A DNA stretch of 32,000 nucleotides from Microcystis aeruginosa NIES-2549 (GTDB lineage: Bacteria; Cyanobacteriota; Cyanobacteriia; Cyanobacteriales; Microcystaceae). The notes under the pieces are model-generated. The model ran no database searches. It was given only the letters and a program-made list of their open reading frames with translations, and was not told where the DNA came from. The position numbers and the translations under genes are program-made. Below are positions 1 through 22,731 of the stretch, piece after piece; position 1 is the stretch's first letter, and each line of letters begins with the position of its first letter. Location: positions 2,970,001 to 3,002,000 of the forward strand of contig NZ_CP011304.1 in the NCBI RefSeq assembly GCF_000981785.2. Reading direction: 5' to 3'.

Positions 1-2905
1 TTGGTCAATGGGAGTATTGCTCAAAGAATTGTCAAGTTTATATCAAGGATTTTTGCTTGATGATGGTTCTGTTCTCTCAGAATTGCCGATTCAATATGCC
101 GATTTTACAATTTGGCAACGGCAATGGTTACAAGGAGAAACTCAAGGTTTTATCACCATCCAAAACCAAATTAATTACTGGAAACAACAGTTAGCCGCAG
201 CCCCTCCTTTGCTAGAATTACCTACGGACAGACCCCGTCCCTCTGTGCAAACTTTCCGAGGTGGATGTTTTTCCTTCCAGTTAGATGCCAAACTGACAGC
301 ATCTCTAAAAGAACTCAGCCACAAATCAGCAACTACCCTATTTATGACGTTGATGGCGGCTTATGTTACTCTATTATTCCGCTATAGTGGTCAAGATGAT
401 ATTCTGGTAGGAACACCGATTGCTAATCGCAACTATCAAGAATTAGAAGGATTAATTGGCTTTTTTGTCAATACCCTAGTGATGCGAACTCGCTTAGAAG
501 GTAATCCCAGTTTTGAAGAATTATTAAGACAAGTGCGTTCTGTTTGTACGAATGCTTATGCTAACCAAGACGTTCCTTTTGAGCAGATTATCGAAACTTT
601 GCAAATAGAGCGCAGTCTTAGTCACAGTCCTTTGTTTCAGGTGATGTTTGTTTTACAAAATGTGGCAATGGAGGAATTAGAAAATCCTGAGTTAAAAATA
701 TCGCATCTACCTCTAGATAATGTTAACGCCAAGTTTGATATCACCTTACAAATGTGGGAAACAAATACAGAAGAAGGCAACTCTCTCCAAGGATTTTGGC
801 AATATAATACAGATTTATTTGATCAAAACACAATTGCTCGCATGACTGGTCATTTTCAGACATTATTAGAGACAATTGTTACTAATCCGCAAGAGTCGGT
901 AGGAACCTTGCCATTACTAACAAAAAAAGAGCGTTATCAACTGTTATTAGAATGGAATAATACTGATACACCATACAGTTATACTCAGTGTATTCATCAG
1001 TTATTTGAAGAGCAGGTAAAACGGACTCCTGATGCTGTAGCTGTAGTATTTAAAGGTGAAAAATTAACCTATAATGAGTTAAATCATCGAGCTAATCAGT
1101 TAGCGCATTATTTGCAATCTTTGGGAGTAAAACCTGATCAATTAGTGGGGATTTGTCTTGAGCGTTCTTTAGAGATGATTGTGGGGTTATTGGGGATATT
1201 AAAAGCGGGTGCTGCTTATGTTCCTCTTGACCCAGAATATCCGATTGAACGGTTAAGCTTCATGTTAGAAGATGCTCAATTATCAGTGCTGTTAACGCAA
1301 CAAAAGCTAGGAGAAACTCTACCTCAACATCAAGCGCAGATTATTTATTTAGATACCGACTGGGAAAAAATTGCCGAAAACAGCCATTCCAATCTAGAAA
1401 ACAGGGTCACTCCAGATAACTTAGCTTATGTTATTTACACTTCCGGTTCCACAGGTAAACCGAAAGGGGTGTTAGTCAATCACTCCAATGTCGTGCGATT
1501 ATTTGCCGCTACAGATGCTTGGTATAATTTTAGTAGTCAAGATGTCTGGACTCTATTTCATTCCTACGCTTTTGACTTTTCGGTGTGGGAAATGTGGGGA
1601 GCTTTGTTATATGGTGGACGCTTGGTAGTTGTCCCCTACTTAATAACTCGTTCCCCCGAAGCATTTTATCAGCTATTATGTCAAGAAAAAGTAACAATTC
1701 TTAATCAAACTCCTACCGCTTTCCGTCAGTTAATTCAAGCTGAAGAATCCTTAAAAGGAAGTTTTCCCCCCTTATCAAGGGGGGTTAGGGGGGATCGTTC
1801 ATCGACAACAGATAACGATTTAAGCTTACGTTTAGTTATTTTTGGAGGAGAAGCTTTAGAAATTAACAGCTTACAACCTTGGTTTCAGCGCCATGGCGAC
1901 CAATGCCCCCAATTAGTTAATATGTACGGAATTACAGAAACTACCGTTCATGTCACCTATCGACCATTAAGTATGACCGACTTGGATAGTACAGCTAGTG
2001 TGATTGGTCGTCCCATTCCCGACTTACAAGTATATTTACTAGACCAACATTTACAACTTGTACCGGTTGGTGTACCTGGGGAGATGTATGTGGGGGGTGC
2101 AGGAGTAACAAAAGGTTATCTCAATCGTCCTGAATTAACAACAGAAAGGTTTATTTCTAGTCCTTTTGAGAAGGATGAAGTGATCCCCCCAACCCCCCTT
2201 AATAAGGGGGGCAATGAGCCGTCAAAATTATATAAAACGGGAGATTTAGCCCGTTATTTACCTAAGGGAGAATTAGAATATTTAGGACGCATTGATAATC
2301 AAGTTAAGATTCGGGGTTTTCGGATTGAGTTGGGGGAAATCGAAGCATTATTAGCATCTCATCCCCAGATTTGGGAAACAGTAGTAATAGTGAGGGATGA
2401 TACAACAGGAGATAAGCGTCTTGTGGCCTACATTGTGCCACAATCGGAAAAAATAATTACCATTAACGAAATACGGCAATTTCTGAAAGCTAAATTACCC
2501 AGTTACATGATACCTAATGCTTTCGTTATTTTAGATGCCTTACCCCTTACTGCTAATGGAAAAATAGATCGTCGAGCTTTACCACCACCAGAATCTAGTA
2601 GTGAACCATCAGAAAAATATGTTGCTCCGCGTAACCCGATCGAGGATATATTAGTAACTGTTTGGTCAGAAGTGCTAAAAGTCGAGAAAGTGGGTATAAA
2701 TGATAACTTCTTTGAGTTGGGAGGACATTCCCTACTAGCCACTAAATTAGTAGCACAGATACGCAATCGCTTGAAAGTTGAACTTCCCTTACGTCAGTTA
2801 TTCAACTCGGCCACACTAGCAGAATTAGCCCAAGGGATTGAACAGTTAAAACAGGAAAAATCCGCTCCCATCGTTCCAGCCATTTTACCAAGAAAAAGAA
2901 AATGA
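1..2905 (+). CDS. mcnA: NRPS, 3' part (partial at window edge): C(partial)-A(Thr)-T module, McnA-like cyanopeptolin/micropeptin synthetase subunit
   Basis: The reading frame is open to the window start. Codons before the ATG at 8 read W-S, the tail of the C-domain HHxxxDGWS motif. A-domain cores are YTSGSTGKPKG (~1437-1470), YKTGDL and GRIDNQVKIRGFRIELGEIE. The PCP motif FFELGGHSLLA lies at ~2709-2740. By-eye Stachelhaus residues D-F-W-N-I-G-M-V-H match the Thr code. The stop overlaps the next start (ATGA at 2902-2905). The symbol is inferred from architecture and is equivalent to ociA/apdA. Confidence 0.85.
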   Translation, partial: WSMGVLLKELSSLYQGFLLDDGSVLSELPIQYADFTIWQRQWLQGETQGFITIQNQINYWKQQLAAAPPLLELPTDRPRPSVQTFRGGCFSFQLDAKLTASLKELSHKSATTLFMTLMAAYVTLLFRYSGQDDILVGTPIANRNYQELEGLIGFFVNTLVMRTRLEGNPSFEELLRQVRSVCTNAYANQDVPFEQIIETLQIERSLSHSPLFQVMFVLQNVAMEELENPELKISHLPLDNVNAKFDITLQMWETNTEEGNSLQGFWQYNTDLFDQNTIARMTGHFQTLLETIVTNPQESVGTLPLLTKKERYQLLLEWNNTDTPYSYTQCIHQLFEEQVKRTPDAVAVVFKGEKLTYNELNHRANQLAHYLQSLGVKPDQLVGICLERSLEMIVGLLGILKAGAAYVPLDPEYPIERLSFMLEDAQLSVLLTQQKLGETLPQHQAQIIYLDTDWEKIAENSHSNLENRVTPDNLAYVIYTSGSTGKPKGVLVNHSNVVRLFAATDAWYNFSSQDVWTLFHSYAFDFSVWEMWGALLYGGRLVVVPYLITRSPEAFYQLLCQEKVTILNQTPTAFRQLIQAEESLKGSFPPLSRGVRGDRSSTTDNDLSLRLVIFGGEALEINSLQPWFQRHGDQCPQLVNMYGITETTVHVTYRPLSMTDLDSTASVIGRPIPDLQVYLLDQHLQLVPVGVPGEMYVGGAGVTKGYLNRPELTTERFISSPFEKDEVIPPTPLNKGGNEPSKLYKTGDLARYLPKGELEYLGRIDNQVKIRGFRIELGEIEALLASHPQIWETVVIVRDDTTGDKRLVAYIVPQSEKIITINEIRQFLKAKLPSYMIPNAFVILDALPLTANGKIDRRALPPPESSSEPSEKYVAPRNPIEDILVTVWSEVLKVEKVGINDNFFELGGHSLLATKLVAQIRNRLKVELPLRQLFNSATLAELAQGIEQLKQEKSAPIVPAILPRKRK
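1766..1803 (-). repeat. Inverted-orientation relative of the palindromic cassette core, in frame inside the McnA-like A domain (FPPLSRGVRGDRSS)
   Basis: ccccccttatcaaggggggttaggggggatcgttcatc aligns with the reverse complement of the cassette core (ccccccttattaaggggggttggggggatcacttcatc). It lies between the TPTAFRQL and LVIFGGEA regions, a stretch that is shorter in the other A domains. Confidence 0.75.
2168..2227 (+). repeat. 60-bp in-frame cassette (EKDEVIPPTPLNKGGNEPSK) with palindromic core, copy 1 (A domain of McnA-like)
   Basis: Sequence gagaaggatgaagtgatccccccaaccccccttaataaggggggcaatgagccgtcaaaa. It contains the near-perfect palindrome cccccctta-a-taagggggg. It sits in the variable loop between A6 (GYLNRPELT) and A7 (LYKTGDL). 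Confidence 0.9.
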
Positions 2906-5900
2906 ATTTTGAAGAATTACCTTTATCTTATGCCCAACAGCGTTTATGGTTCTTAGATCAATTAGAACCAAACAGTCCCTTTTATAATATTTCCCTGGCC
3001 TTGCATTTAGCAGGAAATCTCCAGGTAGATGTCCTCGAAAAAAGCCTACAAGAAATTATTCAGCGCCATGAGTCCCTCCGCACAAATTTCGCCACTATTG
3101 AGGGAAATCCTGTACAAATAATCAAACCAGAAAGTAATTGGCAATTAACGCTTGTCAATGGGAAAGACAGCCCAAAATATCGAGAAGAGCAGGAAATAAA
3201 AAAATGGCTAGAAATTCACAGCCATCAACCCTTTGATTTGGCCAATGACTCCCTAATTAGAGTCACCCTACTTAAGTTATCAGACACAGAACATTTTTTG
3301 CTGATTTGTCTGCACCATATTGTCTCTGATGGTTGGTCAATGGGGGTATTTATTGAGGAATTGACAACCCTTTATAATGCCTATACTAAAGGTTTAGAAC
3401 CTCTTTTACAAGAGTTACCAATCCAGTACGCAGATTTTGCAATTTGGCAAAGGGAATATTTACAGGGAGAAATCCGACAAAATCAGTTAAATTACTGGCA
3501 AAAACAGTTAGCAGCAGCACCCGCTTTATTACATCTACCTACGGATTATCCCCGTCCTCTACAACAAAGTTTTCAGGGAGATCGGATAAAATGTATCCTT
3601 TCTCCAGAACTTAGTCAAGGCTTAAATAAGCTGAGTCGGGAAAAAGGTGTCACCTTATTTATGACCCTCCTGACCGCATTTAAGGTCCTACTCTATCGTT
3701 ACACAGGACAAACAGACATTTTAGTCGGTACTCCCATCGCTAACCGTACTCGTAGTGAATTAGCTGGGTTAATCGGCTTTTTTGTCAATACCTTAGTCTT
3801 AAGAACAGATTTAGCCAGAAATCCCAGTTTTAGCGAGTTATTAAAACAGGTACGAGAAACAGCAACGGATGCTTACGACCATCAAGATTTACCTTTTGAG
3901 ATGTTAGTAGAGGCCCTACAACCTGAAAGAAACATGAGTTATACTCCTTTGTTTCAGGTGATGTTTGGGTTAGATAATGAAATTGTAGATAGCATAGATT
4001 TAGAAGGAATAAAAGCCACTCGTCAGCCTTTAGAATTTAAGACATCTAAGTTTGACTTAAGTTTATCTATACAGGTAAAAGAAGCTGGATTAACTGCGAT
4101 TTGGGAATATAATACAGATCTGTTTGACAAAAGCACAATTGAGCGACTATCAGAGCATTTTGTTAACCTATTAACTGGGATCATTGCTAATCCAGAACAA
4201 GTAATTGGTCAATTACCTTTACTAACAAAAAGCGAGAGTAATCAGTTATTATTTGATTGGAATCAGACTAAAATTGACTACAAAAATGATTTATGTCTGC
4301 ATCAGTTGTTTGAACAACAAGTAAAACAGAATCCACAGGCGATCGCTGTTAGACTAGAAGATGAATTTTTAACCTACGATGAGTTAAACTGTAAGGCTAA
4401 TCAGTTAGCCCATTACCTACAATCTTTAGGGGTAAAATCCGAGAGTTTAGTCGGGATTTTTGTTGAACGTTCCCTAGACATGATTATCGGAATCCTGGGA
4501 ATACTTAAAGCAGGGGGAGCTTACGTTCCTTTAGATATTAATTATCCAAAAGAGCGAATTACCTATATTCTTGAAGATACTCAACTTAGTATTCTCCTGA
4601 CTCAATCACAACTTCTGGAACAATTACCAGCATTTCAAGGAACAACCATCTGTTTAGACCAAGACTGGTCAACAATTGCCAAACAGAGTACAGTTAACCC
4701 TTTGGTAGCAGTTGAGCAGCACAATTTAGCCTATCTTATCTACACCTCTGGCTCCACAGGTCAACCCAAAGGGGTAATGATTGAACATCGCTCAGTAGTC
4801 AACTATATACTGACTACTATTCGAGAGTATGGTATTACCTCAGAGGATCAAATTCTGCAATGTTCCTCTATCTGCTTTGATGCTTCCGTTGAAGAAATCT
4901 TTGTTAGTTTGTTATCGGGTGCGACCTTGGTATTGCGAACAGAAGAGATGTTGCGCTCTAGTGAGGATTTTTGGCAATGTTGTCAAAAATGGCAATTAAC
5001 AGTTTTGGGTATTCCTACTGCCTATTGGCATCAATTAGCCTCTGAATTAACCCCTGATACCCTGCCAATTCTCTCAAAGATTAAACTAATTGTCATTGGT
5101 GGGGAAGCTATTCAACCGGCAAAAGTACAGCAATGGCAAACAATCACAGGCCAATATTCCCCTCTTCCTCGACTATTCAATGCTTACGGACCAACAGAAG
5201 CAACCATTGCGGCGACTTTCTCCGAATTTACTTCACCAACTATAACCAATATTCCCATTGGGCGACCCATCAGTAATACTCAGGTTTATATTCTTGATGC
5301 TTGCTTACAACCTGTTCCTGTGGGGGTAGCTGGAGAATTACATATTGGTGGTATGGGATTAGCGCGGGGTTATTTTAATCGTCCAGAATTAACTCAAGAG
5401 AAATTTATCCCTAATTCTTTTGAGAAGGATGAAGTGATCCCCCCAACCCCCCTTAATAAGGGGGGCAATGAGCCGTCAAAATTATATAAAACGGGAGATT
5501 TATGTCGGTATTTACCCGACGGTAATATTGAGTATTTAGGACGGATTGACAATCAAGTAAAAATTCGGGGTTTTCGCATTGAATTGGGAGAAATTGAAAC
5601 CGTTCTTAGTCAGCACAATGCAGTAAAAACGGCTGTTGTTATTGCCCAAGAAGATGAGACAAATCAGAAACGTTTAGTCGCCTATATTATTCCCAAAATA
5701 GAGATTATTTCCGCCCCAAAAGAGGAAAATTCGCTTAATGTTACTGAACTGCGGCAATTCCTGAAAGCCAAGTTACCAGAGTATATGATTCCTAGTGCCT
5801 TTGTCATTTTGGAATCCCTACCCTTAACGCCCAATGGTAAGATCGATCATCGTGCTTTACCGGCTCCCGAATTCCAAAGCCAAGAGCAGTATATCGCGCC

Positions 5901-8900
5901 GCGTAACCCCATTGAGGAGATATTATCCTCGATTTGGGCAAAAGTGCTAAAAGTTGCACAGGTGGGAATTCACGACAACTTCTTTGAGTTAGGTGGACAT
6001 TCATTATTAGCAACGCAACTAATTTCGCGCATCCGTGAGGCTTTTCAGGTAGAAATGCCCTTACGCGAGTTATTTGTTGCACCGACAATCGCCGAATTGT
6101 CCCAAGAAATAAAACGGCTTTCCGAAGGAGAACAACTAACTGAACTGCCGATTTTACCCAGGGACAAAGCAGCAGAATTACCCTTATCTTTTGCTCAGAC
6201 TCGTCTCTGGTTTTTGGCTGAATTTGAGTCGAATAGTTCTTTTTATAATATCCCCCTAGCCTTGCGTTTAGAGGGAACTTTAAACTCAGAAATCTTAATC
6301 CAGAGTTTAGAAGAAATTTGTGATCGCCACGAAGCTTTACGCACCAACTTTATTACCGTTGATGGTATCCCTACCCAGGTTGTACAAGCACGAAACTGGA
6401 CAGTTACGGTTGTTGATTTACAGCATTTATCTGGTAGTGAAAAAGTAATTGCCTCCCAAGAGTTAGCACAAAATCAAGCGATTCAACCCTTTGACTTAGC
6501 TCGTGAACCCTTAATCAGAATCACTTTAGTGGTGTTATCTGAAACGGAACATCTCTTATTAGTCTGTATGCACCACATTGTCAGTGATGGCTGGTCAATG
6601 GGGGTATTTCTTCAGGAACTAACCGCCCTCTATAATGCCTATATTCAGGGTTTATCTTCGCCTCTAAATCCCCTATCTATCCAGTATGGAGATTTTACCC
6701 TTTGGCAAAGACAATGGCTGCAGGGAGAGGTATTGCAACAGCAACTAGACTACTGGCAAAAACAGTTAGCCGGCGCACCGGCCCTCCTATCTTTACCAAC
6801 AGATAGACCTCGACCCAATCAACAAAGTTTTGCTGGGGGACATTTACCCTTTAGCCTTTCCCTAGAATTAACCGAAAAACTGACCCAATTAACCCAGGAA
6901 CAGGGTGTCACCTTATTTATGACCCTGTTAACAGCTTATGCTGTCTTACTTTACCGTTATACAGAACAGGAAGACATCTTAATTGGTACTCCCATTGCTA
7001 ACCGTAATCGCAGTGAACTTGAAGGTTTAATCGGCTTTTTTGTCAATACTTTGGTTCTGCGAATTGACTTGTCAGGTAAGCCCAATTTTAATCAGTTATT
7101 GGGTCGAGTACGGGAAATGGCAATGGATGCCTATGCTCATCAGGATTTGCCCTTTGAAATGTTAGTAGAAGTCCTACAACCTGAACGAGATTTAAGTCAC
7201 GCGCCTTTATTTCAAGTGGATTTTCTGCTGCAAAATAGTCCTCCGTCTCCCTTGGAACTAACAGGCTTAACTGCCACTCCCCTCACCACGGAAAATGAGA
7301 CCGCCAAATTTGATCTAACCCTGGCGATGGAGAATACTGGTGCAGAATTAAAAGGGGTATGGGAATATAATACCGATTTATTTGATCGCAGCACCATTGA
7401 GCGATTAACAGGAAATTTCATCACCCTACTAGAAGCATTAGTTGTTAACCCGCAGCAGCCAATCTTTCAACTACCATTATTAACCGAAGTAGAGGCAAAA
7501 GAATTATTAAAAGACTGGAATGCCACCGAAAAAGAATATCCTTTACATCAGTGTATTCATCATTTATTTGAAGAACAAGCAGCACGAACACCAGCTGCAG
7601 TAGCAGTGGTCTTTGAAGGTCAAGAATTAACCTATCAAGAATTAAATATCCAGGCGAATCAATTAGCCCATTATTTACAATCTTTGGGGGTAAATTCAGA
7701 AGTTTTAGTTGGTATTTATCTAGAGCGGTCGCTGTTAGTTATTGTCGGATTATTGGCAGTTCTCAAAGCTGGAGGAGCCTATATACCTTTAGATCCAGAT
7801 TATCCCCAGCAACGGTTGACTTATATGGCAGAAGATGCCCAAATTTCTCTACTGCTAACTCAAGAAAGTTTACTCGATTCTTTGCCAGTAGAAGATCTAG
7901 GGGTAATTGTCTTAGATAAATTAGCCGAAAAATTGACGGTTCAAAGTCCAGAAAATCCCCTCAGTGAAGTGGTTCCAGAAAATCTACTATGCCTATTATA
8001 TACATCTGGTTCAACCGGTAAACCTAAAGGAGTGATGTTAACTCACGCAGCCTTAGTTAATCATAGTTGGGGCATTAGTGAAGTATTCGGTTTAACAGAA
8101 TCTGATCGCGTTTTACAGTTTGCTTCCTTTGGTTTTGATGTCGCCGCCGAAGAAATTTTCCCCACCTGGTTAAAAGGTGGCACAGTGGTCTTAAGACCAG
8201 GGCAAATGTTCCCAACTTTGACTGATTTTGCCGATTTTATCGAACAAGAAAGCCTCACCGTTTTAAATATTACCCCCGCCTATTGGCATGAATGGGCAAT
8301 CGCCGTTTCCCAATCATTAGCTACTGTACCATCCAGTCTGCGAGTTGTGGCCGTGGGAGGGGATGCAGTGTTACCAGAAACCGTCAATATTTGGCGACAA
8401 ATGGTCGGGAAACGGGTTGAATGTATTAATGTCTATGGCCCCACAGAAGCGTCTGTAACCGCCATAGTTCATGACTTGCTAGATTATCAGTCAGAGAAAA
8501 TCAATTCAGTGCTGATTGGTCGTCCTATTGCTAACACAAAAGCATACATACTAGATCAAAATCTGCAACCTGTACCCATTGGAGTTAAGGGAGAATTGCA
8601 TCTATGCGGTGTTCGTTTAGCGCGGGGTTATCTGAATCGTCCCGAATTGACTGCTGAAAAATTTATTGACAATCCCTTTGCTAATGCAGCTTTCAATCGG
8701 TTGTATAAAACGGGAGATTTAGCGCGTTATTTACCCGATGGTAATATTGAATGTTTTGGCCGGATTGACAATCAGGTTAAAATTCGCGGATTCCGTATTG
8801 AGTTAGGAGAAATTGAAGCGGTACTTAACCAAAATATTGATGTACAAACATCTTGTGTGATTATTCGGGAAGATACTCCGGGGGATAAATATTTAGTCGC

Positions 8901-11900
8901 CTACATAGTAGCTCATTACGAACGCATACCGATGATTAGTGAACTGCGTCAGTTTCTGTCCAGTAAATTGCCTCTGTATATGGTTCCTCAAGCTTTTGTT
9001 TTTCTGGAATCTTTACCCCTTACTACTAATCGTAAGGTAGATCGTCGCGCTTTACCCGCACCAGATAAAATAGGAAATCGCCGGGATCAATATGTAGCAC
9101 CACGCAATGGAATTGAGGAGATGTTGGTGCAAATTTGGACAGAAATACTCAAAATAGAGCAAGTGGGAATTTATGATAATTTCTTTGAAATTGGCGGCCA
9201 TTCTCTCCTCGCAACTCAATTAGTTTCTCGGATTCGGAGTTTATTTAAAATAGAACTACCTTTGCGGAGTTTATTTGCAGCAGCTACGGTAGCCGAATTA
9301 GCGCATCTTATTGGACAATTACAGCAGCAAAATCTCACTCTAACAGTACCCCCGATTTTACCGAGAACTAAGGATACAGAACTACCTCTATCTTTTGCTC
9401 AACAGCGTTTATGGTTTTTAGATCAATTGCAACCAAATAGCGCTTTATACAATATACCGATGGTGTTGCATTTCCGAGGCAACCTCAATCAAAAGGCCTT
9501 AGAACAAAGTTTACGAGAAATCTGTGATCGCCATGAAGTATTACGGACTAATTTTGTCACGATTGATGGACAACCGACTCAGATTATTCAAACAACAAGG
9601 GAGACAATATCGGTCGTTGATTTACAAGATTTACCCATCCATGAACAAGAAGAAAAAACAGAGCAATTAAAGCAAAAACAAGCCACTCAACCCTTTGATT
9701 TAGCCAAAGAATCCTTAATCAGAATCACTTTAGTGGTGCTATCGGAGACGGAACATCTCTTATTAGTGTGTATGCACCACATTATTAGTGATGGTTGGTC
9801 AATAGAAGTATTTATTCACGAATTGACCACCTTATACAATGCTTATGTGCAGAATCATCCCGCAAATTTAGCTCCTTTACCGATTCAGTATGCAGATTTT
9901 GCAGTTTGGCAAAAACAATGGTTACAAGGGGATGTCCTACAAAGTCAATTAAATTACTGGCAAAATCAACTAACAGCTGCACCCCCTTTATTATCGCTTC
10001 CCACAGACCACCCTCGGCCTGCGGTGCAAAGCTTTGTCGGTACTCAGCAAGAATTTTCCCTTTCCCCCAAACTTAGCCAAGCTTTGACCGAATTGAGTCG
10101 CCAACAAGGGGTGACATTATTTATGACGCTGTTGGCTGCTTTTGATGCTTTATTGTATCGTTATACAGGGTCAAGTGATATTTTAGTAGGAACTCCCATC
10201 GCTAACCGGAATCGCGGTGAAATTGAGGGTTTAATCGGCTTCTTTGTTAATACTTTAGTGATGCGGACGGATTTATCAGATAATCCGAGTTTTAGTCAGT
10301 TATTAACCCGGGTTCGGGAAGTGACAATGGATGCTTATGCACACCAAGACTTACCCTTTGAAATGTTAGTCGAAGCGTTGCAACCAGAACGGGATTTGAG
10401 CCATACTCCCCTATTTCAAGTCGCTTTTGTCCTGCAAAATACACCTAAGTCTGAGATTGGAATGACGGGATTAACGGTGACAGATTTGCCACCGGAAAAT
10501 ACTACAGCTAAATTTGATTTAACCTTAGCTATGGTTAACACCGATGATGGCTTAAAAGGTGTCTGGGAATATAATACTGATTTGTTTGAGAGTAGCACTA
10601 TTGAGCGATTATCTGGGCATTTTCTCAACTTATTAGGGGGAATTGCGGCCAATCCTCAAGCGCGGATTTCCCAATTACCCTTACTGACAGAAAGTGAGAC
10701 TAATCAGTTATTAATTGAGTGGAACAATACTCAAGTTGACTATCCTGAGTATAAGTGTATTCATCAATTATTTGAGGAACAGGTAAAACGCACACCCGAC
10801 GCGGTAGCGGTGGTCTGTTCAGATCAACAATTAACCTACAATGAATTAAATTGTCGTGCTAATCAATTAGCTCATTACCTGCAAAAATTAGTAGTAAAAC
10901 CAGATGAATTAGTGGGGATTTGTCTAGAGCGTTCCTTAGACATGATTGTGGGATTATTGGCTATTCTTAAAGTCGGTGGAGCTTATGTTCCTATTGACCC
11001 AGATTATCCCCAAGAACGCATTAGCTTCATGCTCCAAGATACCCAAGTTAAAATAATATTAACCTGCGAATCTTTACAGAATTCCTTGCCAAATCATCAG
11101 ACTATTGTTATCTGTTTAGACAAAGATTGGGAACAAATTAATCAGGCAAGTCCGGAGAATCTGAACAGCACAGTTTCTGCGGATAATTTAGCCTACGTTA
11201 TTTATACTTCTGGTTCTACAGGAATACCCAAGGGTGTTATCGTCACTCATCAAGCAGTTAATCGACTGGTATTAAATACTAATTACATCCAGTTTACTCC
11301 TGATGACCGCGTTGTTCAAGCGTCTAATATTGCTTTTGATGCCGCTACTTTTGAAATTTGGGGGGCTTTACTTAACGGTGCTAAGATTGTTATTATCGCT
11401 AAATCAGTTTTGCTCTCACCCCAAGAATTGGCACTAAGCTTAAAGGAAAATCGGATTAGTGTCTTATTTTTAACCACAGCACTTTTTAATCAGTTAGCCA
11501 ATTTAGTTCCGCAAGCTTTTAGTAGCTTACGCTGCTTACTATTTGGGGGTGAAGCAGTTGAACCAAAATGGGTACAAGAGGTACTAGAAAAAGGTGCGCC
11601 ACAACGGTTGCTTCATGTCTATGGTCCAACGGAAAATACAACGTTTTCTTCCTGGTATTTAGTGGAAAACGTAGCTTCTACAGCCACAACTATTCCCATT
11701 GGTAAAGCGATTGCCAATACCCAAATCTATTTGCTGGATAAAAATCTCCAACCTGTCCCGATTGGTGTAGTAGGAGAATTACATATTGGTGGCGCAGGAT
11801 TAGCCAAAGGTTATCTCAATCGTCCCCAATTAACCCAAGAAAAATTTATTCCTAATCCTTTTGAGAAGGATGAAGTGATCCCCCCAACCCCCCTTAATAA

Positions 11901-14900
11901 GGGGGGCAATGAGCCGTCAAAATTATATAAAACGGGAGACTTAGCCCGTTATTTACCCGATGGTAAAATCGAATATTTAGGACGCATTGACAATCAAGTA
12001 AAACTTCGCGGCTTCCGTATTGAATTAGGAGAAATTGAGGCCTTACTCAACCAAAATGAGGCGGTACAGTCTTCTTGTGTGATTGTTCGTGAAGATAATC
12101 TAGGGGATAAACGCTTAGTTGCTTACGTTGTACCGCAACCCGAAATCCACCTGACAATTAACGAAATACGGCAATTTTTGCGAGCAAAATTACCCGATTA
12201 TATGGTTCCTACTGCGTTTGTCCTTCTTGATACTTTCCCCTTAACTCCCAATGGCAAAATCGACCGCCGTGCTTTACCTGTTCCCGATTTACAGAGCCAA
12301 GGTGAATATATAGCCCCCCGTAATCCCATTGAAGAAAAAATGGCGCAGATTTGGGCTGAGGTACTGAAATTAGAACGAGTCAGTATTGAGGATAATTTCT
12401 TTGAATTAGGGGGACATTCTCTGTTGGCGACTCAAGTTATTTCTCGATTACAGGAAACCTTTGAGATTGTTGTTCCCTTGCGTTATCTGTTTGAATCCCC
12501 AACCATTGCTCAGTTAAGTGGGGTAATTTTAAAAGAACTGCAAACAGGTTTAGGGTCAAAGCTACCATCAATTGTCCCCGTTAATCGAGAGGAGGACATT
12601 CCCCTATCCTGGGCCCAGGAACGTCTCTGGTTTGTGAATCAATTAGAAGGAGAAAGTGGGGCTTATACTATTGATTTAACGATGCGTTTGCGCGGAAATC
12701 TCAATGTTAAAGCCTTAGAAAAAGCTTTCCAGGCAATTATTCAACGCCATGAACCCCTACGGACTCAATTTAAACTCAAAGATAACAAACCAATACAAGC
12801 GATCGATCCTAATGTAACCTTCACCTTACCAGTTGTTAATCTGCAAAACCTCAGTCATTCTGAGCAACAGGTAAAAAACCTGTTATTAGCAGCAGCATCC
12901 GAACCCTTTGATCTCGAATCAGGGTCAGTATTACGAGTCAAATTATGGCAAGTCAAGACAGAGGAATATGTACTATTATTAGCTATTCATCATATTGCGG
13001 CGGATGGTTGGTCATTAGGTGTTTTAGTTGACGAATTATCGGTCTATTATCGAAGTTTCTGCACCGGTACAAAAGCAGATTTACCTGATTTATCAATACA
13101 GTATGCTGACTTTGCCGTGTGGCAGCGTCAATGGTTAACTAATGAAGTATTAGACCGTCAATTAAGCTACTGGAAGCAACAATTAACCGGGGTTCCCCTA
13201 CTACACCAACTTCCCACAGACCGTCCCCGGCCAGCAATCCAAAGTTTTCGCGGTGGGACGGAGCGACTGCAACTAGATAGTCAACTAACGCAACAACTGA
13301 AAAAACTCAGTCAAGAGTCCGGTAGCACTCTCTTTATGACATTACTAGCGGGTTTTGCTGTGTTACTATCTCGTTATAGTCAACAAACAGATGTGGTAAT
13401 TGGTTCACCAATTGCTAACCGTAACCGCACCGAAATTGAAGGGTTAATTGGCTTTTTTGTCAATACTTTAGTGTTAAGATTTAATTTATCTCAAGACCCG
13501 ACCTTTGAAGATTTTCTCGCGCAAGTCAGACAAACTACTCAAAACGCTTACGACCATCAAGATTTACCCTTCGAGATGTTAGTCGAAAAATTACAAATTG
13601 AGCGTCATTTAGATCGTAATCCTTTAACACAGATAGTTTTTGCCCTTCAGAATGCTCCTAGTTCTCCCTGGGATTTACCCGGAGTAAACATTGAGGAGAT
13701 ACCATCAGGACTTGATTCAGTTAGGGTTGACTTAGAAGTTTACCTCTGGGATGCACCCGAAGGATTAGGCGGTTTTTGCTCTTATAACAGGGATTTATTT
13801 GATGCTGAAACTATTGTCCGTATGATGAATCATTTTACGACTTTGTTAGCGGCAATTGTGGAAAATCCCCGTCAATCATTAGCTTCACTACCCTTATTAA
13901 ACCCAGAGGAAGAGTATCAACTATTAGAGGAGTGGAATGAGACAAAAGCAGATTACTCCTATAACAAGTGTATTCATCAATTAATTGAGGAACAAGCAGC
14001 GCGTACCCCTGATGCAGTAGCAGTAGTCTTTGAAAATCAACAGTTGACCTATGCAGAATTAAATAGTCGGGCCAATCAACTAGCTCACTATTTACGCTCT
14101 TTAGGTGTAGAAACCGAGGTAATAGTCGGTTTATGTGTAGAGCGCTCTTTAGACATGATTGTGGCATTAATAGGCATCCTTAAAGCCGGTGCTGCCTATC
14201 TACCCCTTGACCCAGAATATCCTCAAGAACGCTTACAATTTATGTTAGAGGATAGTCAAGTACCCTTATTACTAACCCAAAGTTCACTGATTGATAAACT
14301 CCCAAATCATCAAGCTAAAGCTGTATTTTTAGCTGAAATTTGGACAGAAATTAAACCAATGAACTGGGATAATTTGACGGGGAAGGTAACAGCTTCTAAT
14401 TTAGCTAATGTGATTTATACTTCTGGTTCTACGGGTAAACCTAAAGGGGTGATGGTTGAACATCAAGGGTTATGTAACTTAGCTCTGGCGCAAATTCAGA
14501 CTTTTGCTGTGTCTTCTCAGAGTCGAGTGCTTCAGTTTGCTTCTTTTAGTTTTGATGCCTGTATTTGGGAAGTTTTGATGGCTTTGGGAGCAGGAGCGGC
14601 ACTTTATTTAGCAAGTAAAGACAATTTAATGCCCGGTTTACCCTTAATCAAGCAATTACGGGAGAATAAGATTACTCATATTACTCTACCGCCATCAGCT
14701 TTAGCGGTTCTGTCTTGGGAAAATCTTTCCTCTCTGCAAACTATTATTGTCGCCGGGGAAGCTTGTTCTCCTGAATTGGTGAAAAAATGGTCACAGGGAC
14801 GAAGTTTCTTTAATGGTTATGGACCCACAGAAGGAAGTGTTTGTGCAACGGTAGCTAAATGTACGCCTGTTGATGCAAAAATAACTATTGGTCGGCCAAT

Positions 14901-17232: not shown

Positions 17233-17400
17233 GTGAAAGTAGGAGATTTTTTAGCGTATTTGAAGGGTTTAGAGATTAAACTATGGCTGGAAGGCGAAAA
17301 ACTTCGTTTTCAGGCTCCCAAAGGGGTTATGACCCCAGAAATTAAAGAAGAAATCGCCGCCAAAAAACCTGAAATTTTGGACTTTTTAAGAGCGGCAAAA
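17233..17400 (+). other. TubC-N-like beta-hairpin docking domain at N-terminus of the terminal module
   Basis: The sequence (M)KVGDFLAYLKGLEIKLWLEGEKLRFQAPKGVMTPEIKEEIAAKKPEILDFL matches the LWxEGxxLRxxAPxGxxTPExxxxxxxxKxEIL pattern of NRPS N-terminal docking domains. It precedes the C domain. Confidence 0.7.
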
Positions 17401-20400
17401 ATCCCAACTAATACTGTTGATTTAGAGATTATTCCCGTGTCACGGGATCAGGATTTACCCCTCTCTTTTGCTCAACAGCGACTCTGGTTTTTACACCAAC
17501 TTTCCCCCGATAGTCATTCCTATAATCTGTTGGACGCTTTACGGTTAGAAGGCTCCCTCAATCTGTTGGCTTTAGAACAAAGTCTCAGCGAACTAATTCG
17601 CCGTCATGAAATTTTAAGAACCACTTTTCCCATGATTGAAGGGCAACCAATTCAGCGCATTGCTCCCCCTTCCCCCGTCAGTTTACCCCTAGAAGATTTA
17701 CAAAATTTATCAAAGAATGAACAGACAGAACATTTGCAAGAAATAGCGATTGCTTTCTCCTTAAAACCCTTTAATCTAGCCAAGGAATCCTTAGTCCAAT
17801 TTAAGTTACTTAAACTCAGTTCCCAAGAGTATGTATTGCTGTTGAAGATGCACCATATTATTTACGATGGTTGGTCTTTGAGCATCTTCTTTGATGAATT
17901 ATCGCAACTTTATGCGGCCTTTGTCCGGGGGTTGCCTTCCCCTCTCGCTAAATTATCGATTCAATACGCCGATTTTGCCGTATGGCAACGTCAATGGCTC
18001 ACCGGTGAAGTCTTGGAACGTCAACTTAATTACTGGCAAAAACAGTTACAAGATGCACCTACTATTTTAGAATTGCCGACGGATTATCCCCGTCCTCCAA
18101 TTCCTAGTTTCCGGGGTGATGGGCAGGTTTTTCGCCTGAATCAAGACTTAACGCAACGCCTCAAAAGGTTAAGTCAAGAGTCAGGAGCAACGCTATTTAT
18201 GACTTTACTGGCGGCTTTTTTTGTCCTAATTTCTCGTTATAGTGGTCAATTAGATGTGTTGGTGGGTTCTCCCATCGCTAATCGTAATAGTTCGGCAATT
18301 GAGAAATTAATGGGCTTTTTTGCCAATACTTTGGCTTTAAGGGGTGATATGTCGGGAAATCCGAGTTTTCTGGAGTTATTAGAACGAGTAAAGCAAACAA
18401 CTTTATCAGCTTATGCTCATCAAGATTTGCCTTTTGAAATGTTAGTAGAAAAATTACAATTAAACCGCGATTTAAGTCACAATCCTTTGATACAGGTAAT
18501 GTTCTCACTGCAAAATACTCCCCAATCTGAGGCCAGTTTATCTGGCTTAAAGATGGAGAGTTTGCCTTTATCTGTTGAGCTTAAAGCGCGATTTGATTTA
18601 GAGGTAAATTTTTGGGAAGTTTCTGATCGTTTAGAAGCGGTTTGGTGTTATAGTACGGATTTGTTTGCTGCCCCCACCATTAACCAAATGGGGCAACATT
18701 TTCAAAATCTCTTAACTGCGATTGCAGCTAATCCCAATATGGGAATTTTTGAGTTATCAATGTTAAGTGATGAAGAACGTTATCAATTGTTATCATTGTG
18801 GAACGAAACTCACACAGATTATCCCTCTGATAAATGTATTCATCAATTATTTGAAGAACAGGTAAAACGCACACCCGATGCGGTAGCAGTGGTATGTTCA
18901 GAGCAAAAATTAACCTACAATGAATTAAATTATCGTGCTAATCAATTAGCTCATTACCTGCAAAAATTAGTAGTAAAACCAGATGAATTAGTGGGGATTT
19001 GTCTAGAGCGTTCCTTAGACATGATTGTGGGATTATTGGCTATTCTTAAAGTCGGTGGAGCTTATGTTCCTATTGACCCAGATTATCCCCAAGAACGCAT
19101 TAGCTTCATGCTCCAAGATACCCAAGTTAAAATAATATTAACCTGCGAATCTTTACAGAATTCCTTGCCAAATCATCAGACTATTGTTATCTGTTTAGAC
19201 AAAGATTGGGAACAAATTAATCAGGCAAGTCAGGAGAATCTGAACAGCACAGTTTCTGCGGATAATTTAGCCTACGTTATTTATACTTCTGGTTCTACAG
19301 GAATACCCAAGGGTGTTATCGTCACTCATCAAGCAGTTAATCGACTGGTATTAAATACTAATTACATCCAGTTTACTCCTGATGACCGCGTTGTTCAAGC
19401 GTCTAATATTGCTTTTGATGCCGCTACTTTTGAAATTTGGGGGGCTTTACTTAACGGTGCTAAGATTATTATTATCGCTAAATCAGTTTTGCTCTCACCC
19501 CAAGAATTGGCACTAAGCTTAAAGGAAAATCGGATTAGTGTCTTATTTTTAACCACAGCACTTTTTAATCAGTTAGCCAATTTAGTTCCGCAAGCTTTTA
19601 GTAGCTTACGCTGCTTACTATTTGGGGGTGAAGCAGTTGAACCAAAATGGGTACAAGAGGTACTAGAAAAAGGTGCGCCACAACGGTTGCTTCATGTCTA
19701 TGGTCCAACGGAAAATACAACGTTTTCTTCTTGGTATTTAGTGGAAAACGTAGCTTCTACAGCCACAACTATTCCCATTGGCAAAGCGATTGCCAATACC
19801 CAAATCTATTTGCTGGATAAAAATCTCCAACCTGTCCCGATTGGTGTAGTAGGAGAATTACATATTGGTGGCGCAGGATTAGCCAAAGGTTATCTCAATC
19901 GTCCCCAATTAACCCAAGAAAAATTTATTCCTAATCCTTTTAGTAATTACCCAGATTCCCGTCTCTATAAAACGGGAGACTTAGCGCGTTATTTACCCGA
20001 TGGTAATATTGAATATGTAGGACGGATTGACAATCAAGTAAAAATTCGCGGCTTCCGTATTGAATTGGGAGAAATTGAGGCTGTACTTAGTCAAAATCAG
20101 GCGGTACAGTCTTCTTGTGTGATTGTTCGTGAAGACAATCCGGGGGAAAAACAGTTAGTTGCCTATATTGTACCTAAGCTAGGAGTAAAGCTAACAAGTG
20201 GCGATTTGCGTCAATTTCTTAGCCATAAATTGCCCGGTTATATGGTTCCGGGTGCTTTTGTGATGCTGGAGTTTTTCCCTTTAACAGCTAACGGAAAAAT
20301 TGATCGCCGTGCGTTAAAAGCTCCTAGTAACCCCAGTGATTCAGACAGATTTATTGAAGCGCGTAATCAGTTAGAATTAAACCTAGTACAAATCTGGTCA

Positions 20401-21450
20401 AAAGTGCTAAAAATTGACAAAGTTAGCGTGCATGATAACTTTTTTGACCTCGGTGGCCATTCCCTTTTAGCTCCTTATTTAATCACCCAAATTAAAGAAC
20501 AGTTAGGCAAGGAAATTGCCGTAACAACACTGTTTCAAAACCCAACTATTGAACAGTTAGCGACCATTATCCAAACCGATGCAGATTCCTCTAACCAGTC
20601 TTGTTTGGTTCCCATTCAACCCCAGGGTTCAAAGCCTCCTTTCTTCTGTGTTCCAGGCGCCGGAGGACGACCATTTTATTTTTACCATTTAGGACGTTAT
20701 TTAGGAAAAGATCAACCTTTCTACAGTTTTGAAAATGATCTCTATCAACAGTTTGGAGAAATCACTCGCATTGAGGATATAGCCAGTATTTATCTTAAAG
20801 CCATGCAGGATTTACAACCCCAAGGACCCTACTTTTTGGGAGGACATTCCTACGGTGGTAATGTGGCTTTTGAAATGGCTCAACAGTTGGTTAATCAGGG
20901 TGAACAAGTGGCATTACTAGCAATCATTGATTCTTCAGCACCCACTTATAAAGACAAACAAATTTTGCTTGATTATATTAATTGGGATCATGCGCGATGG
21001 TTAGCTGAAGTCAGCAAAGGTATCGAAGTTTATTTAGATAAAACCATCGATATTTCCTATGAAACTCTTCAACTCTTAACAGTGGAGGAACAATTAAAAT
21101 ACGCCTTAAACTTTTTTAAACTGGCTAATATGCTTCCTCCCAATGCGGAAACTAGACAGCTTGAAAAAATTGTCCAAGCCTATAAAACTAGCTGTTTATG
21201 TCTGATTGATTATCTCCCTAAACAGACTTATCCGGGTAAAATTACGATTATACGGGCCAGTGAGGAATTATCTGATGATCCAAATAAAGATTTAATAGCT
21301 GGAGATTGCGAGGATTCCTCTTTAGGCTGGAGTGAATTTTCTACAGAGCCAGTTGAGATTCATTTCGTCCTAGGAAATCATGTCTCGATTATGGTGGAAC
21401 CCCATGTCCAGATTTTAGCCGAAGAGTTAAAAGTTTGCCTTGAGATTTGA
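17233..21450 (+). CDS. mcnC: Terminal NRPS module: N-terminal docking domain-C-A(Ile)-T-TE, McnC-like
   Basis: GTG start at 17233, with GGAGG 10 nt upstream. Motifs: HHIIYDGWS (~17848), YTSGSTGIPKG (~19285), FFDLGGHSLLA (~20440), thioesterase GGHSYGG (~20838-20858). By-eye A-domain code D-A-F-F-L-G-V-T-F (Ile). Confidence 0.9.
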   Translation: MKVGDFLAYLKGLEIKLWLEGEKLRFQAPKGVMTPEIKEEIAAKKPEILDFLRAAKIPTNTVDLEIIPVSRDQDLPLSFAQQRLWFLHQLSPDSHSYNLLDALRLEGSLNLLALEQSLSELIRRHEILRTTFPMIEGQPIQRIAPPSPVSLPLEDLQNLSKNEQTEHLQEIAIAFSLKPFNLAKESLVQFKLLKLSSQEYVLLLKMHHIIYDGWSLSIFFDELSQLYAAFVRGLPSPLAKLSIQYADFAVWQRQWLTGEVLERQLNYWQKQLQDAPTILELPTDYPRPPIPSFRGDGQVFRLNQDLTQRLKRLSQESGATLFMTLLAAFFVLISRYSGQLDVLVGSPIANRNSSAIEKLMGFFANTLALRGDMSGNPSFLELLERVKQTTLSAYAHQDLPFEMLVEKLQLNRDLSHNPLIQVMFSLQNTPQSEASLSGLKMESLPLSVELKARFDLEVNFWEVSDRLEAVWCYSTDLFAAPTINQMGQHFQNLLTAIAANPNMGIFELSMLSDEERYQLLSLWNETHTDYPSDKCIHQLFEEQVKRTPDAVAVVCSEQKLTYNELNYRANQLAHYLQKLVVKPDELVGICLERSLDMIVGLLAILKVGGAYVPIDPDYPQERISFMLQDTQVKIILTCESLQNSLPNHQTIVICLDKDWEQINQASQENLNSTVSADNLAYVIYTSGSTGIPKGVIVTHQAVNRLVLNTNYIQFTPDDRVVQASNIAFDAATFEIWGALLNGAKIIIIAKSVLLSPQELALSLKENRISVLFLTTALFNQLANLVPQAFSSLRCLLFGGEAVEPKWVQEVLEKGAPQRLLHVYGPTENTTFSSWYLVENVASTATTIPIGKAIANTQIYLLDKNLQPVPIGVVGELHIGGAGLAKGYLNRPQLTQEKFIPNPFSNYPDSRLYKTGDLARYLPDGNIEYVGRIDNQVKIRGFRIELGEIEAVLSQNQAVQSSCVIVREDNPGEKQLVAYIVPKLGVKLTSGDLRQFLSHKLPGYMVPGAFVMLEFFPLTANGKIDRRALKAPSNPSDSDRFIEARNQLELNLVQIWSKVLKIDKVSVHDNFFDLGGHSLLAPYLITQIKEQLGKEIAVTTLFQNPTIEQLATIIQTDADSSNQSCLVPIQPQGSKPPFFCVPGAGGRPFYFYHLGRYLGKDQPFYSFENDLYQQFGEITRIEDIASIYLKAMQDLQPQGPYFLGGHSYGGNVAFEMAQQLVNQGEQVALLAIIDSSAPTYKDKQILLDYINWDHARWLAEVSKGIEVYLDKTIDISYETLQLLTVEEQLKYALNFFKLANMLPPNAETRQLEKIVQAYKTSCLCLIDYLPKQTYPGKITIIRASEELSDDPNKDLIAGDCEDSSLGWSEFSTEPVEIHFVLGNHVSIMVEPHVQILAEELKVCLEI
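18835..19941 (+). repeat. Near-identical A-domain segment, copy 2 (McnC-like)
   Basis: See 10756-11862. Identity drops sharply upstream, in the C domain/linker. Downstream it ends exactly at the A6-A7 loop. Confidence 0.95.
20600..21447 (+). other. Type I thioesterase (macrocyclising release) domain, approximate bounds
   Basis: FFCVPGAGGRPFYFYHLG, then the GGHSYGG nucleophile elbow, then a C-terminal GNHVSIM histidine region, all after the last PCP. Confidence 0.85.
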
Positions 21451-21510
21451 TACCAAACCCGTTTTTAAGACTATGGTTAACTCCCAATCCAACTTGAAAA
21501 ACCCAGTTAT

Positions 21511-21567
21511 GTACCTAAGCAAAATTAGTGACACATTTCGATAAAGCTTTTGCCTTTTGCCTCTTGC
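21511..21567 (+). repeat. ~50-bp dispersed repeat, copy 1 (inverted partner at 31203-31252)
   Basis: gtacctaagcaaaattagtgacacatttcgataaagcttttgccttttgcctcttgc. It matches the reverse complement of 31203-31252 with 2 mismatches and one extra ttttgcc heptamer. Confidence 0.85.
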
Positions 21568-21685
21568 ATGAGTGCCTATCTTCAGTAGGAAATTTATTTT
21601 GCAAGACTACTTATCAATTGTTTCTCCCCAATCTCCTCTATCTTTTAAACAGGATTTAATCTAAGAACTGACGATTTTCTACAAG

Positions 21686-21714
21686 TTGTGTGAACAGTAA
21701 GACTAATGTAGAAT
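21686..21714 (+). promoter_or_regulatory. Candidate sigma70-type promoter for the 159/184-aa ORF
   Basis: TTGTGT (21686-21691), a 17-nt spacer, then TAGAAT (21709-21714), about 115 nt upstream of the SD-preceded ATG at 21832. Confidence 0.4.
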
Positions 21715-21831
21715 GCTGCAAGGCATCTGATTGCTAGACAGCCGATTTGTATTCTTTTGCCTTACCATGGATTTTATATGACTGAAATCCCGACCAACCA
21801 ATCCAACTTAGTGATTTTAGGAGTCTCATCA

Positions 21832-22311
21832 ATGACGGAAACTACTGAAACGGCCATTCCCCATGATTTTCTCGAAATTAATCCCACAGACATCAACAAA
21901 AAACTTGTCTCCTGGGGAATTTCTCTGGATGAAGTTGTTCAAAAACTTGCATCTCTTGGACTCCCCGGCATTATTTTCATTATTGCTGTTGCCGCATCCG
22001 GTGGTACTGCCTATCCTGCGATTTACGCACTTTTTGGGTTAGGCGGTCCGCTGGGACTAATTGGTGGACTTGGGGTCTTAGGCATCTCTACCATTATTGG
22101 TGACATTGTTACGCGTTATGGCATTGAGGCACTGCTTAAAACGGTCTATCTCAAACGTCGTGAAACAGAAACTCAAGAATATCTCATCAATGAGTTGGAA
22201 GGTTTACCAATTTCTCAAGTTCTAAAACTTAACCTGAAAAAGGCTATTGAAGTAGAAATTGCTGCCGAAGAACCCATTGCTCCCAAAGAAGTCGAAATTG
22301 CTGAAGAGTAG
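21832..22311 (+). CDS. Hypothetical membrane protein with glycine-zipper segment
   Basis: The ATG at 21832 is preceded by AGGAG (21819-21823) with an 8-nt spacer. The track ORF extends to a TTG at 21757, and another ATG lies at 21778. The central hydrophobic region GLPGIIFIIAVAASGGTAYPAIYALFGLGGPLGLIGGLGVLGISTIIG carries GxxxG repeats. The C-terminal tail is acidic. I do not recognise a family. Confidence 0.55.
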   Translation: MTETTETAIPHDFLEINPTDINKKLVSWGISLDEVVQKLASLGLPGIIFIIAVAASGGTAYPAIYALFGLGGPLGLIGGLGVLGISTIIGDIVTRYGIEALLKTVYLKRRETETQEYLINELEGLPISQVLKLNLKKAIEVEIAAEEPIAPKEVEIAEE

Positions 22312-22397
22312 TTTTAACTTGACTAAGCACTTTCTCCCTCCTCTCTCCTGCTGCCCTCACCGGCAAATTGACTTTTTCAGCAAACCCTAAATACAAC

Positions 22398-22450
22398 AAA
22401 AAACCGCCATAAATCTTACTCCTGCTTGACTTATGGCGGTGGTTGTTTTC
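22398..22450. terminator. Bidirectional intrinsic terminator between convergent genes
   Basis: 9-bp stem ccgccataa (22404-22412) / ttatggcgg (22431-22439). It is flanked by A6 on the plus strand (T6 on the minus strand, downstream of the small ORF) and by tggttgttttc on the plus side. Confidence 0.65.
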
Positions 22451-22483
22451 TGTGTGAATTACTGAAAGCAATCTTGAAATTAA

Positions 22484-22648: not shown

Positions 22649-22702
22649 TCCTAGTTTTGAGTAGCAGCTTTTTCAAGATAGCTGCGATTACCTTGTGATA
22701 GT

Positions 22703-22731
22703 AACATATATTGCCGTCTTACTCAAGTCAA
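22703..22731 (-). promoter_or_regulatory. Candidate promoter for the MdnA-like ORF
   Basis: On the minus strand: TTGACT (22731-22726), a 17-nt spacer, then TATGTT (22708-22703), about 55 nt upstream of the ATG. Confidence 0.35.

Follow-up and report, generated by a model that had tools for sequence, protein, structure and literature searches.

The Rickettsia palindromic elements (RPEs), characterized in the cited account as 'selfish DNA in protein-coding genes', are repeats of about 100-150 bp (PMC10969869). Here we compare with them, and with other described systems, a palindromic module of about 31 nt that lies within nonribosomal peptide synthetase (NRPS) genes in a 32,000-nt stretch of the Microcystis aeruginosa NIES-2549 genome (contig NZ_CP011304.1, positions 2,970,001 to 3,002,000; hereafter the window, numbered from its first base). 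The module forms the core of a 60-nt cassette present in three adenylation (A) domains, and it occurs once more, inverted, in the first of these domains. The whole is best and quite probably explained by transposition as the origin of the module and recombination as the means of its spread between NRPS modules.

As far as the cited account portrays RPEs, the module is like them in being a palindromic, non-autonomous repeat that stands in frame in unrelated functional genes, adds a short peptide at fold-compatible positions and also occurs between genes. On the other hand, it measures about 31 nt (39-55 nt with accompanying bases) against 100-150 bp, is presumably unrelated in sequence and belongs to a different phylum; the likeness is a functional analogy. 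Moreover, recombination has probably also carried the present insert from one paralogous domain to another. The small dispersed repeats SDR1-8, described from Nostocaceae by Elhai et al. (2008), are, as summarized in citing papers, mobile repeats of 21-27 nt, of which SDR5 is reported to insert precisely within HIP1 (GCGATCGC), and SDR-like repeats are stated there not to have been found outside Nostocaceae (PMC5861425, PMC4390886). The module shares with SDRs, as they are summarized there, the very small size and the cyanobacterial host; it starts with GATC, and a copy in Okeania is flanked by GCGATC...GATCG. However, its family spans several lineages well outside Nostocaceae, the comparison with SDR1-8 being one of descriptions rather than of sequences. 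By analogy, the module would be closest to RPEs in behaviour and closest to SDRs in size and host.

[quoted passage not shown] The module resembles MITEs in being short and non-coding, without an open reading frame (ORF) of its own, in having many dispersed copies and, in its paired form, in having what would be terminal inverted repeats, whereas the four copies in the window are solo modules with only an internal hairpin and no terminal inverted repeats, and no consistent target-site duplication was identified. The GTAG/CGTC 5' tag of repetitive extragenic palindromic (REP) sequences and REPINs is not carried either: 128 of the 140 cores among the matches listed in our scan (see below) begin with GATC or AATC. 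As for recombination, exchange of A-core segments has been documented for clusters of 3-amino-6-hydroxy-2-piperidone (Ahp) cyclodepsipeptides and other NRPS clusters; in cyanopeptolin clusters, as in the window, A-domain tracts are nearer to another module than to the orthologue and the A-sub part is native (Baunach et al. 2021, PMC8097286). The main text of that paper describes no embedded repeat and does not use the word 'loop', whereas here a repeat-bearing loop is carried at the 3' edge of the exchanged unit. No published description of the module, as DNA string or as peptide, was found in the literature searched (the SDR sequences of Elhai 2008 lay outside that comparison), and the cyanopeptolin recombination paper Rounge 2008 makes no mention of a repeat.

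Cassette copies and an inverted relative in A domains

The window holds the back end of a Microcystis aeruginosa cyanopeptolin/micropeptin-type (Ahp-cyclodepsipeptide) synthetase of the mcn type, whose NRPS modules lie on three collinear ORFs. Its six A domains are here named M1 to M6, with A7 motifs (YKTGD) that begin at 2231, 5485, 8704, 11926, 15079 and 19966. The features concerned are the following.

2168..2227, plus strand: cassette copy 1, in the A6-A7 loop of M1; module proper at 2182-2211; the 60-mer stands at the orthologous site in strains L132 and L090.
5422..5481, plus strand: cassette copy 2, in the A6-A7 loop of M2, the first A domain of ORF 2902-17067; module at 5436-5465; orthologous copy in L132.
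11863..11922, plus strand: cassette copy 3, in the A6-A7 loop of M4, the third A domain of ORF 2902-17067; module at 11877-11906.
1766..1796, minus strand: inverted module of the T/G subtype, minus-strand sequence GATCCCCCCTAACCCCCCTTGATAAGGGGGG, peptide PPLSRGVRGD, in the M1 loop between TPTAF and LRLVIFGGE.
1750..1804, plus strand: stretch extra in the window relative to an empty allele, about 51 nt net, in the A4-A5 loop of M1; contains the module at 1766-1796.
8-2905: ORF with a condensation-adenylation-thiolation (C-A-T) module, its 5' end cut, holding M1.
2902-17067: ORF of 4721 aa with four modules and an N-methyltransferase in the last.
17233-21450: ORF with docking domain-C-A-T-thioesterase, holding the last-module A domain M6.

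The initial annotation had reported the 60-mer as identical in three A6-A7 loops of otherwise diverged A domains, and this was borne out in full. Exact plus-strand matches are present at the three places (0 expected from shuffles), no further match with up to 3 mismatches exists in the window, and all three copies lie between ...PF and LYKTGDL of AMP-binding domains in the intact ORFs 8-2905 and 2902-17067, each encoding EKDEVIPPTPLNKGGNEPSK. Over the 400 aa upstream of the loop M1, M2 and M4 share only 47-51% protein identity, and their A4-motif residues differ; M4 and M6 share 94% over the same length. The other three A domains carry unrelated short loops, ANAAFNR (M3), YLENKEQLKGKR (M5) and SNYPDSR (M6). 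The block common to the three copies is actually 82 nt (2163-2244, 5417-5498 and 11858-11939) rather than 60, because it runs on into codons of conserved motifs; in the 60 nt adjoining the cassette, identity is 70-82% upstream and 78-87% downstream, against 60/60 within it. When such clusters are assembled from short reads, a block of this kind probably gives rise to chimeric contigs. An assembly artefact as the source of the cassette itself was ruled out, for a complete genome contains it, as do many assemblies made independently. The cassette core reads GATCCCCCCAACCCCCCTTAATAAGGGGGG and contains an internal 8-bp GC hairpin. In an AlphaFold2 model of the M4 A domain (mean predicted local distance difference test score (pLDDT) 86, predicted template modelling score (pTM) 0.84), cassette residues 389-408 are coil with pLDDT of about 50-65, that is, the cassette loop is predicted to be disordered.

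The inverted relative of the core, also reported for M1, was found at 1766-1796 with the sequence CCCCCCTTATCAAGGGGGGTTAGGGGGGATC, read as FPPLSRGVRGDRSS. Its minus strand has one extra T and one A/G difference compared with the cassette core, and the M1 loop that holds it exceeds those of M2 and M4 by about 16-20 residues. The likeness to the cassette reaches GATGAA just beyond GATC. This shared hexamer was not relied on; it recurs as ATGAAGTGATCC in L153 but is absent from other copies. Alignment of the window with L132 and L090, whose flanks are near-identical, and with the protein alleles P0208 and P0219 revealed three alleles at 1750-1804: filled, empty (L132, AEES-QENLGN-LSL) and partly deleted (L090 and P0219, with a 12-nt in-frame loss between the G-runs, FPLSRGDRSS). 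This is presence and absence at one site between related strains, the pattern of SDR-type elements, and the proposed check for empty sites in other strains was successful here, though not for the cassette. The A6-A7 loop of one NRPS from Okeania (L066) repeats the subtype, orientation and peptide of the 1766-1796 copy; there, a full paired element lies between the GCGATC...GATCG bases mentioned above.

The ~31-nt module as a dispersed cyanobacterial repeat

The mobile unit is the ~31-nt module, GATC-C6-(T)AA-C6-TTRATAA-G6, and not the 60-mer that had been put forward, whose leader (GAGAAGGATGAAGT) and tail (CAATGAGCCGTCAAAA) are outside the family consensus. One scan of species-representative genomes with AACCCCCCTTNATAAGGGGGG gave at least 120 stretches and 140 cores among the matches listed, to which the following counts refer. 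At least 114 of the 120 stretches have cyanobacterial titles from many orders, the genera including Microcoleus, Calothrix, Dulcicalothrix, Moorena, Okeania, Floridaenema, Nostoc, Chamaesiphon, Prochloron, Phormidium and Microcystis. The 140 cores have a clear-cut left edge, which is GATC in 102 of them and AATC in 26, the base before GATC being variable. A T between the first C-run and AACCCCCC is present in 83 cores and absent from 42, and both subtypes are found in the window; two of the six frames of the module are open in the T variant and four of six in the variant without it. An inverted partner follows 11-75 nt downstream (median 24.5) in 52 cores (~37%), which makes MITE-like palindromes of about 80-130 nt, and the remaining cores are solo or in tandem arrays. 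Intergenic relatives, GATCCCCCCT(T)GCCCCCCTTAATAAGGGGGG-TGCCGAYAGGCGG, occur in other Microcystis strains, so the core does have copies elsewhere, both among the species-representative genomes and in other Microcystis DNA.

A phage vehicle is not indicated, because viral contigs gave only 1 match. Rfam at gathering score had no match in the window, and four element-rich loci gave only a tRNA and sub-threshold noise. One array, at L081 118-474 in a Microcoleus metagenome-assembled genome (MAG), consists of nine tandem 42-nt units of the module and an 11-nt linker (AACAAGATTCT), and its opposite strand is open over 173 aa. Clustered regularly interspaced short palindromic repeats (CRISPR) were ruled out for such tandem arrays, which have no unique spacers.

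In the manner of RPEs, the module stands in frame in unrelated conserved protein genes. When ORFs were taken from stop to stop, with a minimum of 150 aa overall and of 30 aa on either side of the element, 19 sites outside Microcystis lie inside them, and 14 of the 17 host ORFs scanned have Pfam domains, the element mostly occupying an interdomain linker. Its hosts comprise an Orn/Lys/Arg decarboxylase (OKR_DC_1), a NACHT-HEAT protein, MutS2, CobN/Mg-chelatase, PutA, a tetrapyrrole methylase, peptidase U32, an Eco57I-type methylase, TnpB (twice), GltB, a VIT-VWA protein (von Willebrand A), a cytidylyltransferase and the Okeania NRPS; the GltB copy is an insert when aligned to solved GltB sequences. 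The encoded peptides, (S/I)PPTPLNKGG, SPLTPLNKGG, PPL(L/S)RGVRGD or PLIKGGWG, are the open frames of the module. In the two TnpB hosts (L105 4389-5102 and L116 57-1307, Baaleninema MAG; OrfB_IS605 / Cas12f1-like), the in-frame module lies between the OrfB and TNB domains. About 15% of the sites are within ORFs, and the coding share of a bacterial genome is far above 15%; the low genic share fits selection removing most genic insertions.

Variants of the A6-A7 loop were collected by a protein search with a 120-aa query, which returned short fragments only, and by DNA searches.

F-EKDEV-IPPTPLNKGG-NEPSK-L: window type.
F-EKDEV-IPPTPLNKGG-TQGGAK-L.
F-EEQGL-IPPTPLNKGG-NQWSK-L: in an M5-type domain; 30-nt core the same as in the window, leader and tail different by about 30-40%.
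F-EEEGL-IPPNPINKGS-NESSK-L: decayed; L130.
F-DPPLTPLDKG-VEQPSK-L and F-VSL-DPPLTPLDKGG-EQPSK-L: T/G subtype in the other frame, starting directly after or near the Phe codon; L129, L142 and P0172.
Shortened forms, e.g. DPPLTSPNSPTKL: L131.

The occurrence of two subtypes, of two frames and of differing junctions implies that the A6-A7 loop received at least two independent insertions in Microcystis, with one more in Okeania. A loop uniformly conserved from an ancestor, as might have been suspected, is not what was observed; orthologous sites are dimorphic, and several junction types exist. Inserts of 15-30 aa resembling other cyanobacterial repeats were also observed in the A6-A7 loops of P0149, P0153, P0156 and P0221 (NosD-type and related Nostoc NRPS), and similar ones in P0037, P0120, P0097 and P0051; examples are GAGEQGSRGAEILPNSQSPIPSP, KDEGGRMKDE...SFILHPSSFIL, GDWGLGTGDWG and IQNPKSKIQN, with GAGEQGGRGAEILPNSQSPIPSP in NosD. 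The A6-A7 loop seems to be a generally permissive site that collects small repeats, because other A domains hold inserts resembling unrelated repeats there.

Spread between NRPS modules and rival explanations

Three further features concern the spread of the loop within the cluster.

10829..11862, plus strand: M4 A-core recombination tract, 99.5% identical to M6 18908-19941, ending at the cassette.
18908..19941, plus strand: M6 partner tract, matching M4 10829-11862.
19942..19965, plus strand: M6 loop without the cassette (SNYPDSRL allele); in other strains its place is taken by the 60-mer plus TTA.

A 1.1-kb identical A-domain tract had been said to end exactly at the cassette; the M4/M6 tract does end there, but it is 1034 nt with 5 mismatches and not strictly identical. 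It ends at the loop because M6 is without the cassette, and downstream of the loop M4 and M6 are about 91% identical over 180 nt. According to gapped sliding comparisons, M4 of the window is 96-100% identical to M4 of L132 and L133 outside an interval that runs from about -1000 to -200, counted from A7. Inside this interval identity to these orthologues is 41-65%, and identity to M6 of the window is 98-100%. Thus M4 carries a tract nearer to a paralogous module than to its orthologue, the mark of A-core recombination in NRPS. M6 of the window and M6 of L133 differ from about -700 up to the loop. Going upstream from the cassette, one has to pass over 33 nt to reach the nearest informative mismatch against the orthologous M4; the breakpoint is at the cassette or within a few tens of bases of it, to a placement no closer than about 35-60 nt, and a part for the cassette as a recombination junction would be possible and is only compatible with these sequences.

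The last-module orthologues are dimorphic as well: 10 representatives (88-95% identity) contain the cassette and have 1418 aa, and the window, P0123 and P0131 contain SNYPDSR and have 1405 aa. At the DNA level, M6 of the window and M6 of L133 differ at the loop by a clean swap of 24 nt for 63 nt between CCTTTT and TATAAAAC. The 60-mer is unchanged in L132 (M1, M2, M4), L133 (M4, M6) and L090 (M1), and the exact 34-nt cassette core in metagenome contigs is in NRPS loops of several module contexts in 19 of 21 cases, the other 2 being in repeat-rich non-NRPS DNA. The tail of the 60-mer resembles ordinary loops (xEPxSRL or xEPSKL), and related A domains have EKAEGSK, EKTEDSK and EKLGESK. A native EKDE·PSK loop with a 39-nt insert would be the simplest reconstruction, its 13 residues matching the orthologue lengths of 1418 and 1405 aa.

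The initial annotation had offered a mobile element and gene conversion as two explanations, and our results support both, at different steps. Mobile origin of the core is supported by the dispersed palindromic family, intergenic and in frame in unrelated genes, by the several junctions and by the empty allele at 1750-1804. Spread by gene conversion is supported by the identical block that takes in native loop codons, the clean replacement of the M6 loop, the mosaic A domains and the concentration of exact cores in NRPS loops. We suppose the following history. The non-coding palindromic module with its 8-bp GC hairpin, elsewhere the terminal module of MITE-like inverted pairs spread through cyanobacteria, would have been inserted into NRPS coding sequence by a presumably enzymatic mechanism. 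Insertions would survive only if they left an open frame and added residues that the protein can tolerate. In A domains, the places for this may be flexible surface loops, namely the one between A6 and A7 and the one preceding the GGE motif, the peptide itself probably being functionally neutral. In the Microcystis mcn-type cluster, a putative native F-EK-x-E-x-SK-L loop would have become F-EKDE-VIPPTPLNKGGN-EPSK-L, with 13 extra residues. This allele may then have been copied among paralogous A domains and between strains, in a direction that we can only presume, by homologous recombination or gene conversion shuffling A-core segments. The outcome would be the identical copies in M1, M2 and M4 and none in M6, together with a second, independent insertion of the other subtype at 1766-1796.

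Several points weigh against this combined origin by transposition and recombination. We infer the primary cassette insertion, because its precise empty site (back-translated FEKDEPSKLYKTGD) had 0 matches in metagenome contigs. The exchange of SNYPDSR for the cassette is a replacement rather than a simple insertion, and the flanks beside the 1750-1804 insert differ too, so that the filled/empty pair is not a simple insertion. No transposase was identified, and no search aimed at a parent insertion sequence or a REP-associated tyrosine transposase (RAYT) gene was made. There was no consistent target-site duplication among the copies inspected; short repeats that are candidates stand around the type-I (cassette) insert (ATGA), at 1750-1804 (ATC) and in Okeania L066 (GATC), with no uniform rule. 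The Microcystis DNA examined amounts to only ~336 kb, biased to NRPS clusters, whereas a copy number for the source genome would call for the whole of it. Moreover, the unchanged core within the diverged leader and tail of the EEQGL...NQWSK allele could mean constraint or repeated homogenisation of the core, not neutral hitch-hiking.

This last point would suit a role of the module at the DNA or RNA level, either as a homology patch or hairpin promoting A-core exchange or as an mRNA hairpin pacing translation between A-core and A-sub, with selection or repeated conversion preserving the core. The 82-nt identical patch within otherwise diverged paralogues, the 3' ends of the A-core mosaics at the loop or within ~100 nt, and the moderately stable RNA hairpin of the module (-18.9 kcal/mol, z = -2.0) are consistent with it. 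However, this z-score is modest, point variants that weaken the hairpin occur (PPTLL, PPTSL, CCCCCATT), the breakpoints are not resolvable to the cassette, and swaps of the A-core whose 3' limit lies before A-sub are a general phenomenon that takes place without any cassette (PMC8097286). A contig joining M1-type upstream to M2-type downstream sequence (P0002) was not relied on, since it is only 562 nt long and may be an assembly chimera at the repeat. We consider such a role unlikely.

Three independent transpositions of the 60-nt unit itself into M1, M2 and M4, without recombination, would account for the sharp fall of identity at the cassette edges and for its ends TTTTGA...TCAAAA, a 6-bp inverted repeat. 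This is very unlikely, however, because leader and tail are not in the family consensus elsewhere and, from one Microcystis allele to another, change independently of the core, the tail looks like native loops (xEPSKL), the M6 alleles swap the whole loop with no SNYPDSR remnant, and the exact core is nearly confined to NRPS loops. Still less credible, and in our view extremely improbable, is that an A-domain clade has kept the loop from its ancestor as a functionally selected peptide, and that the likeness of this peptide to a repeat is incidental. The cassette does stay in frame in many strains, and the diverged version EEEGLIPPNPINKGSNESSK in L130 indicates that it is not only recent. Nevertheless, orthologous sites are dimorphic, the DNA is identical across paralogues as diverged as M1, M2 and M4 (47-51% protein identity), the same DNA module occurs in intergenic DNA and unrelated proteins of many orders, A-domain loops contain it in both orientations and in two reading frames, and the predicted disorder of the loop also argues against such selection.

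The surrounding locus and significance

Downstream of the synthetase, the RNase E/G protein at 25280-27451 has an exact match in Microcystis aeruginosa assemblies including the complete genome CP012375.1, with neighbour genes agreeing with the window. Beside rne/rnhB (RNase E, RNase HII), strains L001 and L003 have another gene set where the end of the mcn-type cluster sits (window ~21450-24711), consisting of sulfotransferases, a thiamine pyrophosphate (TPP) enzyme, a methyltransferase, an epimerase and a further NRPS; the locus is a replaceable secondary-metabolite island. Directly downstream of the NRPS, a 52-aa ORF with Pfam Inhibitor_I10 (a precursor of a peptide protease inhibitor) is located at L002 14810-14968, corresponding to window ~22300-23150, and it is kept in L133. 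The latter strain also has, at 8127-10004, a gene for a 625-aa protein between the four-module and last NRPS genes, which is without counterpart in the window. This protein has a TubC docking domain and only weak (FAD_binding_3) or faint (DAO, Trp_halogenase) Pfam hints of a flavin adenine dinucleotide (FAD)-dependent enzyme; if it is a halogenase, it would fit the halogenated versus non-halogenated variants of cyanopeptolin. Just past the NRPS stop codon, ~100 nt at 21511-21610 contain a 56-nt repeat 93% complementary to 31201-31256 and are missing at the equivalent place in L133 and L146; this looks like a presence/absence polymorphism of a different small mobile element.

Finally, the module would be a cyanobacterial counterpart of the in-frame palindromic elements of Rickettsia, several times smaller, with copies in several orders of cyanobacteria and in both NRPS and housekeeping enzymes. 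Its existence prompts one to ask what enzyme moves a module of 31 nt. The module also marks two A-domain loops (A6-A7 and pre-GGE) as tolerating 13-26 extra residues in natural, presumably active synthetases. A perfect patch of 82 nt in diverged paralogues should ease homologous pairing, given the minimal homology requirements. A bolder proposal, which we regard as speculative and somewhat unlikely as a whole, is that the module is an undescribed pan-cyanobacterial ultra-small mobile DNA of ~31 nt that writes itself in frame into loops and, as a homology patch at the 3' edge of the A-core, raises exchange between diverged modules and so feeds cyanopeptolin-type diversification. The idea that an identical patch in diverged paralogues aids the A-core swaps behind peptide diversity is testable.

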